A stretch of 64,000 nt of DNA, filler included, from Dirinaria sp. TL-2023a (lineage: Eukaryota), in NCBI GenBank assembly GCA_051941275.1. It is 7 parts of 7 records of this genome, joined end to end, with 100 filler letters (N's around TTAATTAATTAA, not from the genome) between each part and the next. Parts side by side here need not be neighbours in the genome. Positions count along the whole stretch, not along the records: positions 18,608 to 27,801 come from JAVEBF010001083.1; 6 more parts are not named here. One strand, given 5' to 3'. The notes under the pieces were generated by a model. The model searched no databases. It was not told the origin of the DNA and saw only the letters and a list, made by a program, of their open reading frames with translations. The stretch's first letter is position 1; each line of letters opens with the position of its first letter. Position numbers and translations under genes: made by a program. Below, piece after piece: positions 5,011 to 29,233 of the stretch.

Positions 5011-7161
5011 ATGCCAGCAGCCACAGTATCACCTGAAAGTTGGTCCTCGGGCACTGGGCATCGGGATTCAGATCAAGTATTTGAAGAAAAGGCATCAGCT
5101 CAATCCGAGAGTCTGAATATCTTAATGAAGACATAGAAGAGGAAGTCGCGCATCATCAGCGCGCTCCCGAGCCTCTTATGTGATTGGGATAATTCAAGTC
5201 ATACAACTCATATCGAAAGAAAAGATCGACGATTATCCTTGCATTCCTCAGTCTAAGGGTCCGAAGCTGCCCTGTCAAACGGGCACAATCGGCTCGCGGG
5301 TGATGGTACAGCTTTGTGGTTCTTGCTAATTCAGTGGGTCGCTTTTCGGACGTCTTGCGCTTACATCGCCAATATCAGAATCCTCGCCAACGTCATCCAA
5401 TAAAGTAAGGAAGAAGAATCTCGATCAGTTTGTAAGGGTCATTACTTACCGCCTGCCTGGAGACCTGTGGTTTAAAAAGCGAGGTCTGTGTACCGTACAT
5501 AGATCTCTAATCTCCGTGCTACTCGAGGAGAAAGAGCGTGGTAAGGCAGTACTGACATAAGCAATTGGATCCTCTCGTTGAGAGCGGGTGTCAACGAATT
5601 ACTGGACGCTTGTCCGACGGAGATTTGTACTTAATGATCCTAAGTATGGTTCTGCAGAATCATTAGCACCCGCATCCTATACTTTGCTCGTGACTTTGTA
5701 GATCAGTGCATGCCCAAGTGACCTCGCTCTAGAGAACCATATCCATGCAGTGCCATACTCGGACACACCGGGTCAGCCATGCCAGGATGCGTATCCTGCT
5801 TCCCTCAGTCAATTCAAATGTACAGGGCTGGCTGTAAGATACCTCTATGGACCGGATAATACGGAATGAGGCCACGTTTGATAGGATTCTACTCAATCCC
5901 CGAGCGAATCATTTGCTCCTTAAGAACGAACGCTTGGAAATGGAAGGGTGGTATACAGCCATCGTCATATTCTAGCGAGTTTGGTGCAGGGTCTTCCCGT
6001 GATCGACCGGTACGCGGCCGGTATAAGTGGGATATCGTGGGAAATTCTCCGAAATGTAAGACATGCAACCTATCGGACAAGCTTTATATGCGGTCCATCA
6101 TGATGGTGTACAGGTTATGGAAATGACTTGGGCGGTAAGCGGCTATATCGACAAAAGGCTGCTATCCCGTTTGCAATCCCGCAGGTTGCTGAACCTCGAA
6201 ACGGAGAATGCTCCTTTGGTAGCCCATCAGTGACGCTGAATTAAGTTTCCGAGACGCAGTTGCATGAGTTTGACAAGCTCTTGCTTCAAGCTTATCTTTC
6301 CCGAATCTTTTGGGTTCAACACACGTCGTATATCGACAGCATATTGAGACAGCCAATCCAGGCTAAGTGAGAGAGGCGAGCTCGGCAGGCGTATAAAGCT
6401 CAGCACGTGAGATGATATGCATAATCGGCCAATGTAAAAGATCGAGTGGTGGTGAAGGCCTTATGGCTCATTGACAGGGTTTCTTGTTTCACCGAATCGA
6501 CGATCATAAGGTAGGATTGGAATCATCACGCGCCACCGACGCAAGAACTGATTCGTTCAGCATAATGTACCCGGATGAAGACAAATCTCAACCGGGTTCC
6601 TTATCAGTCTGCAGACGAAGGTTTAGGATTCGGAAGAATTTAGAAACAGCACGTGGGACCATGTCGAGCATTTTGACGAAGCACGGAATATTCAGCGAGT
6701 AATCACAGTCATCGAAGCCAACGGGTATGATTCGGACTGAGAAGTGGTCGTTATGCGCCTCGATCCTTTGCTTCTCGTATTATCAGGAGTCCACAAAGAG
6801 TCAGGATGATCTCGCACACCTGCAATTGTTGGGTCCGTATTCTCTACTGTCCTGCTCGTAAAGTCACGGGACCAGAGTCTGAATCAGGTTAGCGTTTAGG
6901 TAGGGCTGGTACTGCCAAGTATCAATCGATTGTATGTCAAACATGAAGCTGCATTAAGCTATCTTGTATTTGTAAAGAGAAAAGTTGTTTGTACGTTCCC
7001 TTAGTTTGGCATAACCTTCAATGCTCCATATCCTCTCCATCTTGTCTCCTTAGTGTTCGCCCACCACCATCTCACCAATGCTTTCGTCAGACCGTTGCAT
7101 GGGCCCAATATTCTTACGAATGGCTTGAAACAAACAGCAAGCCTCACTGTGTTTAGCAGCC

Positions 7162-25258: not shown

Positions 25259-26740
25259 GTTGGGATGGCCTTTCGATATCGCCGAGCCGACTTTAGCGTG
25301 GGTTGCCGGGGGCGACCCTGACTGACGATCTCCCGTTTCGGGCCGACCAGTGTTACCGATCAGACTTCACACTCGGCATAAGGTAAGTAACTGCATTACT
25401 GTACAGGACAGTCCATTAAATTCGCAGTCACAGATCTCCGTTGTCCCCCTTTCCAGCGTCACATTGAGTGGACCATGTACTTCAGCCTTTTGAATTCAAC
25501 TTCTCTATAAGACAACTCTCCTTATGGTAGGACAATTGGGCTAAGGTGGGACTTTGCCCAACGCACTGCTCATGGCTCTTGAGATGATCTCCCACCAAGT
25601 CCCGTTGATGCATCCTTAATTGGTCAACAGAATTGAGGATATCCTGAGTAGTAATACCAAGTCATCGACTGACCCTCTCTTTCTGGCCATAGATCCTCCA
25701 TGAATCTAGACCGCGTTCACTTCTTGGGTTTCCATTGGTAGGTGCTTGGTCTCCTTCCCCTTCTATTTCGCTACTATCCTCCGTCGGATATACGCGTGGA
25801 TCATTCCTGGTCCAAAGCCTCCGCTGTTCTAGAGTACCAGCAGCAGACCATCCAGAGTGATAGAGCTGTGAAGGCGAAAAGCAGCATTAGGATGAGGACG
25901 ATCACGAGATCCCGCTTCATTTCTTTTTCGAGAATCCAAACTGTTTGTCAGATTAGCATGAATTCAGAACGGAGAGAGGGGCGGAAGCAAACCTTTCTTG
26001 CACGTGGATTTGGTGAGACACTTTACCCTTAAACCCTGCAACCTGGTGTGAGTTCTGAGCATGTGCTTTGGAAAGTGTACCTATTGCTTATGATTGATCG
26101 TAACCAGTGTGCTATGCCCAGTGAAGTCAAAAGGGATACATTGAACGTTAGTCAGATTCACCCTGGAGTTGAATAATGGCTTTTGAGTGGAGCCTTGTTG
26201 AATCAAAGTCACCATTGGATGATTGAATCAAGATACTTGAAGCTAGGTTTGCATTCATGGACGAGCTCAGGCTTCTCAACCTCTCTACGCCTTGTTTGAC
26301 AGTAGTATTGCATGGCGAATCAGTCCAACATCACTCAGTTGAGCCTATGCTGAAAATTCGCACCCTGTCAGAGCAAAGAGACAGACCAAATTGACCCTGA
26401 GACACCACCAGGTCGAGGGCGTTGATGGGTGAAAACGAGTCGTGTGAAGGGTGGTGTGCCGGGAATGATCCTAACATAAATGCTGCAATTGAATTTGGTA
26501 CCATTGACTTGTGGTTGGTGACTATCTTCTCCTTATTTAGTAGTCACATTGATCCTTGGTTGTTCATTACCGCCCAACACAGCAAATTGAATGTTTTAAA
26601 GCACTCAAAAGAGTAAAATAATATCCTACCGAATTAAGAAATCACATTGGCAGCAACATCAATAATTTACTCCCTGGAAAACACCAAATAAATTGGAAAA
26701 AAGAAATACAAATGAATCCATATGATTAAGAAATAAGCCC

Positions 26741-27101
26741 AATTCCCTAACCAAGGCCGTTACGGTCGAGTGGTAATTCGGGTGCTAACCCGCGCCGCTG
26801 AGCCTAAACCCCAAGGTTCAGTGTTCGACCCTCGACAGTAACAAAATGAGGCCAACCTAGCGGTTGCCTTCTTCTGCCCAATGTCCCTGACCGCCTCCTC
26901 CCCCCAAGAAGCGCAGACACAGAAGAAGCGTGGGTCCGTTTCCTTTCCCCCCGGGGAGGAAAGCCTGCAAATACTACTAGTTTCGAGACGGTGCAAACCA
27001 GGTGGTGCTGGTTTCATTACCCTCAAAACGCCCTCCAAAGGACACCGCCAGCTGGCCTTGGAGCGCGGAGGGGAACTTTTGCCATTTTGGGGTAGGGAGT
27101 T
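26741..27101 (+). ncRNA. Putative structured non-coding RNA of unassigned family
   Basis: At least seven helices can be paired by eye. Non-Watson-Crick pairs are mostly G-U on the + strand. The ends are complementary and followed directly by a long T tract. No convincing ORF. Confidence 0.55.
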
Positions 27102-27581
27102 TTTTTTTTCTTTTTTTTCTTTTTTGGGTGGCTACTTTGGGAATTCTTTTTATTGCATTGATTATCTACGAGAATGTGTAGTTTGTAATTATGGCTGATG
27201 GAGGGACGGACGCTTTTGATGATTCCTTGAAGGCGGTACCAAAAAGGGGCGCTGGGTGCACGTGACTTACCCTTCATTAGTAGTATCTTCCAAACAACGA
27301 AGGAAAACTGATAAAGATCTCGTAAAATCAGTCATTCAACCTCCTATCCAAACATCATGAAACCACTTTCCTAGATCTAATGAACCGCAAAGCCCTTCCC
27401 TCCTCAACCACCCATCCCTTTCAAACCCCATCCATGTGACAAAAATCCCGACATTTCTCCACACTTAAAAAAACAACCTTTATCCAATCCAACCCAACCA
27501 TCCCTCAAGCAAAAAAAAAAAAAAATCGCATCCTGCACTCCCTTCTCCACTCCCCACCCCTCGTTCCTCACTCCCATCATC

Positions 27582-27710
27582 TCACGCTCCCCACGGATTA
27601 ATAAACCGCGGCGGCCGCACGGTGCAATACAGCCACCACGAACCCGCGATGCCAACGCAAACCAGGACCGGGATCGCGATCGCGAGGAATATCACCGCTT
27701 CGTGCGGCAT
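27582..27710 (-). CDS. Possible 42-aa single-pass membrane microprotein, or last exon of a gene cut by the linker
   Basis: MPHEAVIFLAIAIPVLVCVGIAGSWWLYCTVRPPRFINPWGA*; A at -3 of the ATG; GC-rich island in low-complexity flanks. Confidence 0.35.
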   Translation of the reverse strand: MPHEAVIFLAIAIPVLVCVGIAGSWWLYCTVRPPRFINPWGA

Positions 27711-27801
27711 TATTTGCGGCCCGCCCGAGGGGTTTGGCTGGATTGGCTTTTTTTGTCTGTCTGTCTGTCTGAAAGGAAGGGGGGTTTGGATGTGCTGTTT
27801 G

Positions 27802-27901
27802 NNNNNNNNNNNNNNNNNNNNNNNNNNNNNNNNNNNNNNNNNNNNTTAATTAATTAANNNNNNNNNNNNNNNNNNNNNNNNNNNNNNNNNNNNNNNNNNN
27901 N
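27802..27901. other. Artificial contig linker
   Basis: 44 N + TTAATTAATTAA + 44 N. Confidence 0.98.
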
Positions 27902-28102: not shown

Positions 28103-28984
28103 ATGGCATCCATCAAAAAAAGTTGCGGCAAAGTCGTCTGCATAGGCCGCAACTATGCGTATGGATTTCTCCCGTCCCATCATCCCCCCTCAACTCCTTT
28201 CCTTCACTTTCTTTCTTAAGATGGCAACTTTTCGCTCACCGAGCTGACAGTCCTCTCAAGCGATCATATCACCGAGCTGTCCAACGCACGCCCCGAACGA
28301 CCTTTCTTCTTCCTCAAACCCCGTTCCTCCCTCCTCCCACCGAACCACGGCCCTATCCTCCGACCTAAGGGCGTGGACCTGCATTATGAAGTCGAATTAG
28401 CACTTATAATAGGACGCCGGGGCCTGAAAAATCTACACGAAAATAATACAAAGCAGGCCATGGAAGCCATTAGATGTATATCCCCTCTCCACCCCTCTCT
28501 TCTTGGAAAAGAGGGCGGAGAGTAGCTGGCTGATATGGGAGGATATATGTCACCAGCATACGCAGTGGCTATCGATCTCACGGCGCGAAATATCCAGTCA
28601 GAAGCCAAAAGTAAAGGGTTGCCATGGACCATTGCGAAAGGGTTTAACACCTTTTGCCCGATTTCCAACTCCATCGATCCACCCAGAATCCCTGACCCGC
28701 ATGATGTGGAAATTTATCTCAAGGTGAATTCGCACGTTAGGCAGTGCGATAGCACGCGGTTGATGCTGTTCGGAATACCGAGGCTTTTAACGGATATCAG
28801 CCAGGTTATGACGTTGGAGAAGGGGGATGTCGTGCTGACGGGCACGCCAAAGGGGGTGGGAAGCGTGGATGTGGGAGACGTGCTGGAAGCAGGATTGAGG
28901 GTTGGTGGGGCTGAAGTCGAGGAGGGCAAGATCAAGGTAACGGTAGCGGAAAAGGACGGTCCATATAGGTATGGGGAAACCTAG
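28103..28984 (+). CDS. Fumarylacetoacetate-hydrolase family protein (FAHD1/Fmp41-like; 2 introns)
   Basis: KVVCIGRNYA|DHITEL, PFFFLKP, DLHYEVELA, IDLTARNIQ..GLPWTIAKGFNTFCPIS and GDVVLTGTPKGVG. Confidence 0.93.
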
Positions 28985-29233
28985 TGGGTAGAAGTAGGTG
29001 GATAAGAACTATCCCTTAGTGTAGACACGGGTCTCGCATTGCGAAAGCTATGCTAGATTAGCCCAAAACCCTCGACGTAGATTATTTTCTCGCGCTCAGC
29101 TCCTTAGCTCTGTTGGCATTGAATCGTCAGCATTTGGCCATGATCGTAATGGTGATGGCAAGCCTCCATCACCTTTTTCTTGGTTGTAATAGCTCCTTGC
29201 TAATCTAAGGTAAGTTCATCGCTGAAAACCCAT

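Follow-up and report, generated by a model that had tools for sequence, protein, structure and literature searches.

To our knowledge, the Pol III transcripts described from fungi make up a short list, comprising tRNA, 5S, U6, SRP and RPR1 RNAs, a few orphans and milRNA precursors. SCR1/7SL genes carry internal A and B boxes and specify RNAs with paired ends. They are stand-alone Pol III genes that end in oligo-T and yield a structured product of ~300 nt (PMC4605306), and their transcription is TFIIIC-dependent (PMC2566860). In the RPR1 leader and in Yarrowia tRNA-Trp-RUF70, a tRNA-like 5' promoter drives an unrelated structured RNA (PMC2566860). The Aspergillus RNAs Afu-182, Afu-202, Afu-309, as well as Afu-336, are intergenic and structured, measure 220–350 nt, and were unclassed when described (PMC2377427); afu-182 has a phenotype (10.1101/2025.10.16.682787). 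The tRNA-related AfuSINE2 elements combine an A/B head, a body and an oligo-T end at low copy number, ranging from 140 to 493 bp with some single-copy (PMC5063351). The major milRNA genes of Neurospora are Pol III units in intergenic DNA that terminate in runs of T; among them, pri-milR-1 is ~170 nt long and lacks A/B boxes (PMC3547838). The 17 structures in PMC8216456 span 48–343 nt, the intergenic Pezizomycotina ones 92–144 nt.

Here, we analyzed an element of ~361 nt (positions 26741–27101, plus strand) in Dirinaria sp. TL-2023a, contained in a 64-kb stretch of DNA referred to as the window. It resembles SCR1/7SL in size, oligo-T end, predicted structure and apparent organization as a stand-alone Pol III gene, but unlike SCR1/7SL (RF01502) it has no UGUNR loop, helix 8 symmetric loop, long helix 5 or covariance-model match. 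A tRNA-like 5' promoter joined to an unrelated structured RNA is shared with RPR1 and RUF70; the element differs in having no intact tRNA, and RUF70 is only ~70 nt. Moreover, the two ends of the element are predicted to pair with each other, and this speaks against a leader that is cut away. The Aspergillus orphans are similar in setting, size and structure, and differ in that their expression was shown, whereas the element is known from sequence alone. Our literature search, made at the level of listings, returned no description of such an RNA.

Genomic setting of the element

The window contains fungal AA9, P450, RNA polymerase large-subunit, and Prp3 genes, and the best-matching named relatives of Prp3 come from lichen-forming ascomycetes (~69% identity). 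The assembly is fragmented (27.7 Mb in 3105 contigs). The element is intergenic and sits on contig C1083, whose end is ~700 nt away. The nearest upstream ORFs lie ~1.6 kb away on the minus strand and give a weak homeodomain match. The earlier note described the element as a GC-rich island in AT-rich DNA. This holds locally, with 56.5% GC in the element against 30–31% in the 100-nt flanks, but not across the window, which averages 50%.

The tract at 27400–27720 shows a strong C/A skew (GC skew -0.79), with CG-rich repeats after it, close to where the contig ends; it is possibly the promoter of a gene past the gap. An N-gap with a TTAATTAATTAA spacer (27802–27901) marks the end of the contig. 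Since the FAA-hydrolase gene past this gap belongs to another contig, its adjacency rests on scaffolding.

Promoter and terminator signals

An A-box-like motif, CGGTCGAGTGG, occupies 26763–26773 and a B-box-like motif, TGTTCGACCCT, occupies 26822–26832, both on the plus strand; a second copy of the element, described below, retains them as CGGTCGAGCGG and TGTTCGAATCC. The search pattern was built on what we take to be the A-box and B-box consensus. Requiring an A box, a B box, and T≥6, it matched once in the window (26763/26823) and once in the copy 2 locus, and 2 of 60 shuffled windows contained any match. The boxes are 60 nt apart in the window copy and 54 nt apart in copy 2. In yeast tRNA genes the two boxes are 31–93 nt apart and transcription starts ~18–20 nt before the A box (PMC4937561). 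The expected start is therefore at 26743–26745, 2–4 nt from the terminal helix of the predicted RNA, which begins 22 nt before the A box.

The T-rich run reported to follow the element consists of T10, T8, and T6 at 27100–27125 (T15 in copy 2). In both copies the first run of T≥5 comes directly after the terminal helix, and the body contains T4 runs at most (27077 and 27085). The boxes, their spacing and the oligo-T run, found in both copies, support a type-2 (tRNA-like promoter) Pol III gene architecture. The Pol III half of the earlier proposal, a Pol III-type or snRNA-like transcript, is thus supported. Its snRNA-like half is not, as an Sm site and the U1, U2, U5, and U6 motifs, searched with what we take to be their signatures, were absent from both copies, and there was no Rfam match. 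Transcription of the minus strand was rejected because of the fold, the box orientation and the T-run.

Upstream, the AT-rich proximal region (26696–26740; 31% GC in the 100 nt upstream), with CATATGA at 26719, is the likely landing region for TFIIIB. About 200 nt before the RNA lies the 10-mer GTAGTCACAT (26540–26549, plus strand), which includes the Homol-D core AGTCAC, is unique within the window, and is identical in copy 2 (L002 1331, at ~-190). Near-diagonal matches as long occurred in 3 of 300 and 7 of 300 shuffles (15- and 30-nt bands, respectively) and in 6 of 60 without a band. In fission yeast, AGTCAC forms the core of an element used by Pol II (PMC4138321), and no AGTCAC Homol-D-like site was present near the U3 gene of this genome. 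Judging from its sequence, GTAGTCACAT is a possible upstream regulatory site. We also weighed, and discarded, a DNA transposon bounded by AGTCAC, as only 6-nt repeats and no convincing target-site duplication were found.

Predicted fold of the RNA body

Every sequence and helix listed in the earlier note was recovered at the positions given there. The plus strand folds with an MFE of -137.7 kcal/mol, better than shuffled sequences (z -3.67, 0 of 100 as stable), and the minus strand gave z -1.70 with 4 of 100 shuffles as stable. None of the 46 fixed 361-nt control windows taken over the 64 kb reached the z-score of the element (-3.39 in that run; lowest control -3.15), a comparison that favors the element because its ends were chosen by hand and those of the controls were fixed. 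Two of the 46 controls folded unusually well in their own right (28801–29161, z -3.15; 5401–5761, z -2.67; 15 shuffles), and the former overlaps the end of the FAA-hydrolase ORF.

The body is closed by a 9-bp terminal helix, 26741–49/27093–101, with a pair probability of 0.92. High probabilities were also obtained for the GUUAC/GUCGAG helix (0.92–0.93), the CGGGU hairpin (0.86), the CGCUGAGCCU hairpin (0.99), the CUUCUUCUG helix (0.88), and the UUUCCUUUCC helix (0.93), with weaker values for the CAACC (0.56) and AAACCAG (0.45) hairpins. The pair probabilities delimit a 5' domain (26755–26853) that bears the promoter, is composed of a long helix and two hairpins, and is the most variable domain. 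It loosely resembles a tRNA with a long variable arm; ARAGORN predicted 0 tRNA genes, Rfam gave no tRNA hit, and no cloverleaf with a T-stem was found. The central domain (26857–26980) contains helices 26868–76/26920–28, 26930–35/26963–68, and 26939–48/26953–62 (p 0.88–0.93 in the window copy and 0.96–0.99 in copy 2) and is probably closed, in the folding model, by 26857–64/26973–80. It is followed by the hairpin AAACCAG-GUGGUG-CUGGUUU (26995–27014), the loop of which is complementary to CACCGC at 27043–48 (duplex -10.7 kcal/mol). A pseudoknot or alternative helix formed by this pairing is possible.

The 3' domain (27020–27082) includes the palindrome GCCAGCTGGC (27047–56) and, from fold energies and copy comparison, is predicted to adopt two near-equal folds. 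The first is a local hairpin (27020–27072); the second combines the long-range helix CCAAGGCC/GGCCUUGG (26751–58/27054–61) with a GGAA-capped 7-bp hairpin (27065–82). The long-range helix, as originally proposed, is perfect in sequence but has a probability below 0.15 in the ensemble of the window copy, where forcing it costs 1.2 kcal/mol (-136.5 versus -137.7). The hairpin CUCCAA/UUGGAG, put forward as its local competitor, reaches 0.77. In copy 2 the long-range and local folds tie (-124.2 versus -124.1). The CAACC-TAGC-GGTTG helix, for its part, appears in the window copy at the probability given above but is absent from copy 2, where CUAGCGGU instead pairs long-range with ACCGCUAG (p 0.97).

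A second, diverged copy of the element

A DNA search of the genome returned two matches, this locus and one on contig C166 (79% identity, query positions 20–415). The same two loci were found with the 3' part at E≤10, and the head pattern with 2 mismatches gave 4 hits, namely the 2 known copies and 2 unrelated sequences. The existence of a second, diverged copy on another contig is a new observation. Models built from the two copies and run on 15 and 7 sequence sources matched only those two copies. The genomic copy number, proposed in the earlier note as a test for a SINE, is therefore 2 as a lower bound.

The neighbors of the two copies differ: the window copy has a homeodomain-type gene, and copy 2 (contig C166, locus L002) is flanked on one side by a PME-1-like gene and on the other by an RFC-like AAA gene. 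The tetranucleotide correlation of contig C166 with the window is 0.80, compared with 0.82–0.85 for the window parts and 0.27–0.38 for two bacterial loci. A related fungus in the bin is an unlikely but conceivable source of contig C166; bearing on this question of contamination, U3, U6, MRP, and P each have a single match in the assembly.

Copy 2 retains the A and B boxes, the T-run, and most helices, and it also folds better than shuffles (z -2.83). The bodies are identical at 295 of 331 aligned positions, with 42 gap columns. From 5' to 3', identity by domain is 85/100, 99/113, and 111/118, and the 3' domain exceeds the rest (184/213) at p 0.04. The two copies also have a common 3' flank (27138–27268; score 78.5 versus a shuffle maximum of 31.5, 0 of 300), which reaches ~140 nt past the T-run at 90/125 identity, well below the body (Fisher p 2e-5). 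It ends in AAAAGGGG-N5/7-TGCACGTGAC (27242–27266), a pattern with 2 matches in the whole genome, one per copy, and 0 for the reversed control. On the 5' side, the proximal 45 nt are alignable with copy 2 (2 of 500 shuffles as good), and alignment of the 400-nt and farther upstream regions is at chance level (39/300 and 212/300 shuffles). No other similarity was shared by the rest of contigs C1083 and C166.

These comparisons fit a DNA-level duplication of the locus followed by selection on the body, and gene conversion could also have raised the body identity. They also bear on a rival reading, in which the element is a tRNA-derived SINE of low copy number, or the source gene of one, that spread by retrotransposition and whose fold is incidental. 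The tRNA-type A/B head, unrelated body, oligo-T end, size within the AfuSINE2 range, and decay of the 5' domain in copy 2 would suit such an element. We nevertheless regard it as improbable. Retrotransposition would not copy upstream DNA, and here the homology reaches upstream of the predicted start. The flanks common to both copies on both sides, unlike those of dispersed SINEs, are better explained by DNA-level duplication, and conservation is far higher in the body than in the flank. DNA searches and patterns gave only 2 copies, again as lower bounds. Neither copy has a flanking repeat longer than 7 nt that could represent a target-site duplication, the 6–7-nt repeats present being of chance length, although old duplications can decay.

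Conservation of structure and sequence between the copies

In the terminal helix, copy 2 keeps 7 of 9 pairs (3 via one-sided changes) and breaks 2. Across the 129 MFE pairs of the window copy, 89 are unchanged, 7 are changed on one side, 1 is changed on both sides, 15 are broken, and 17 fall in gaps. The single compensatory change is G-C to A-U at 26781/26790. One-sided changes preserve pairs in the terminal helix, the central helices, and the GGAA hairpin; among them, G-to-A at 27067 keeps its pair in the long-range/GGAA fold and breaks it in the local hairpin fold. Through an 11-nt deletion, copy 2 loses one strand of the 26796–26823 hairpin (p 0.99), and an 8-nt deletion trims only the tip of the 26939–48/26953–62 helix. 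Differences do not avoid helices, at 45 of 258 paired versus 21 of 103 unpaired positions (p 0.55), or 43 of 240 versus 23 of 121 in the other fold (p 0.89). The covariation signal between the two copies is thus limited to one compensatory pair, and the AAACCAG hairpin, being invariant in both, gains no support from covariation. With only two sequences the structure lacks statistical support, and given the broken and gapped pairs, the deleted hairpin strand and the lack of helix avoidance, the fold is predicted rather than demonstrated.

The weak covariation would be expected if the locus were a TFIIIC/Pol III-bound DNA element, or a weakly transcribed orphan gene, that makes no stable functional RNA and owes its identity to recent duplication or gene conversion. 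We consider this unlikely, since conservation peaks in the 3' third, well away from the promoter boxes, and both copies fold better than shuffles. The 3' third is near-invariant in stems and loops alike, which suggests constraint at the sequence level. A 105-aa ORF spanning the 3' half gave no match in Pfam; in copy 2 its ATG is missing and the frame is shifted. A coding role is therefore unlikely. The distribution of conserved positions is also informative about a Pol III precursor cut by Dicer or another nuclease into small RNAs, like the Neurospora pri-milRNAs. Such precursors are likewise intergenic units with T-run ends (PMC3547838), but pri-milR-1 is about half as long and has no A/B boxes, the longest unbroken stem in the element is 10 bp, and conservation extends over ~120 nt in the 3' part instead of being confined to a single block of small-RNA size. 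A precursor of this kind is accordingly a distinctly improbable reading.

Single exact patterns, a search of low sensitivity that misses any changed base, found no homologues outside this genome. One pattern each gave 0 hits in viral and prokaryote contigs. A metagenome scan with one 20-nt pattern gave 3 hits, all 3 by chance, with no similarity past 20–25 nt and in apparent bacterial or phage coding DNA.

Comparison with known RNA families

The Rfam scan suggested by the earlier note assigned neither copy to a family. At the gathering threshold there were 0 matches in the window; at E≤10, the element, in contrast to the Aspergillus orphans, matched nothing beyond two weak chance hits, and copy 2 gave no match at E≤0.5. 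Among those orphans, Afu-182 and Afu-309 presumably have Rfam models. Elsewhere in the genome the same approach located one gene each for MRP (95.2 bits), RNase P (37.3), U6 (92.7), and U3 (160.6). Complementarity of the element to these four RNAs is 6–10 nt at most, the longest lying in a variable C-rich loop. No box C was found for a U3/box C/D assignment, and CUGA occurs only at non-conserved internal places. The snR30/U17 m1 and m2 motifs, in the form we take them to have, are absent as exact matches, with one-mismatch look-alikes in the wrong places. Neither copy contains a full TTAGGG-type telomerase template, the partial ones being unshared; this repeat type was assumed and may not be that of the organism. 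In these motif searches, the absence of tRNA, SRP helix 8, snR30 m1, and P/MRP P4 motifs first reported from the sequence was borne out.

Nested end-pairing like that of RNase MRP/P RNA (RF00030, RF00009) had been noticed in the sequence, and it appears in one of the two near-equal folds. A derived P/MRP-like RNA would have P1, P2, a P3-like arm, a P19-like hairpin and, close to the 3' end, a pseudoknot. The nesting agrees with this, 26876–86 could form a crossing pairing with 27082–94 (-7.2 kcal/mol, and -13.6 in copy 2), and copy 2 carries AAAGUCCCC, as in the MRP CR-I region of this genome, a stretch that is altered in the window copy. However, CR-I and CR-V (P4) patterns fitted to this genome's own genes match its MRP (L003) and its P (L004), respectively, and neither copy of the element. 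RNase MRP has a GARAR pentaloop in P8 (PMC13184271); no such loop is present in either copy, the sole GARAR letters sitting in a helix strand. With both families encoded elsewhere in the genome, we judge this identity very unlikely.

The SRP RNA occupies a different position, since none was located elsewhere in the assembly, so that occupancy by another gene does not count against SRP identity. RF01502 found none at E≤10 (26 of 182 candidates scored), nor did Rfam when applied to all 7 loci with the helix-8 pattern and all 16 loci with Alu motifs. The element might then be the fungus's own SRP RNA, diverged past recognition and in two copies. It falls into the right size class, carries an internal A/B promoter and an oligo-T run and has ends predicted to pair, and non-canonical fungal SRP RNAs have previously escaped covariance models (PMC4605306). 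Even atypical basidiomycete SRP RNAs, however, keep the UGUNR loop and helix 8 (PMC4605306). UGUNR is absent from the window copy and occurs once in copy 2, at a non-conserved place. A helix-8 pattern (A-C pair, adjacent G, tetraloop), written as we take this motif to be and with no positive control in this genome, matched neither copy. A single GNRA hairpin, the GGAA one, has a good stem; it adjoins the 3' end and forms a regular helix that lacks the A-C pair. The fold is multi-branched, with no long helix-5 rod, and RF01502 was not among the E≤10 hits at the element or the hits for copy 2. As the assembly is fragmented, the SRP RNA gene may simply be missing from it. Taken together, we hold SRP identity to be quite improbable.

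A proposed Pol III RNA gene of an undescribed family

We favor, with moderate confidence, a stand-alone Pol III RNA gene of an undescribed family, which has been duplicated and kept under selection and whose product would act as a protein-binding scaffold. The gene architecture and the duplication are seen at the two loci; we infer the transcription, fold and function of the element. By analogy with known type-2 Pol III genes, TFIIIC would bind the internal A and B boxes and place TFIIIB on the AT-rich upstream DNA. Pol III would then initiate near 26741–45, pass the two T4 runs and terminate at T10, giving an RNA of ~365 nt with paired ends. The 5' domain would serve chiefly as promoter carrier and be free to drift. 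The near-invariant 3' third, loops included, would be the working surface that binds protein in a ribonucleoprotein, for which SRP and RNase P RNAs provide a model, and the 3' domain might switch between its two near-equal folds.

In a stronger version, which we consider rather doubtful, the element would be the RNA subunit of an undescribed ribonucleoprotein class, its 3' domain would have two states, and it would belong to a set of several orphan Pol III RNAs in this lichen-fungus lineage. In the boldest form of this version, the element would replace the SRP RNA that was not located in the assembly, with neither helix 8 nor UGUNR, which would overturn features thought to be universal. If the favored reading is true, the fungal Pol III repertoire gains a conserved RNA of 360 nt that is encoded twice and belongs to no family. 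Such an RNA would also be a well-defined object for RNA sequencing and for protein pull-down.

Additional observations in the assembly

Two further features were noted on other contigs. An AT-rich LSU rRNA with group II intron domains lies at L026 650–3011 on contig C26, which is probably a mitochondrial contig within the assembly. A telomere-repeat-like sequence, CCCTAACCCTAA, is located at L012 ~1173–1184, ~200 nt upstream of the U6 gene, and resembles what we take to be a Tbf1 site.
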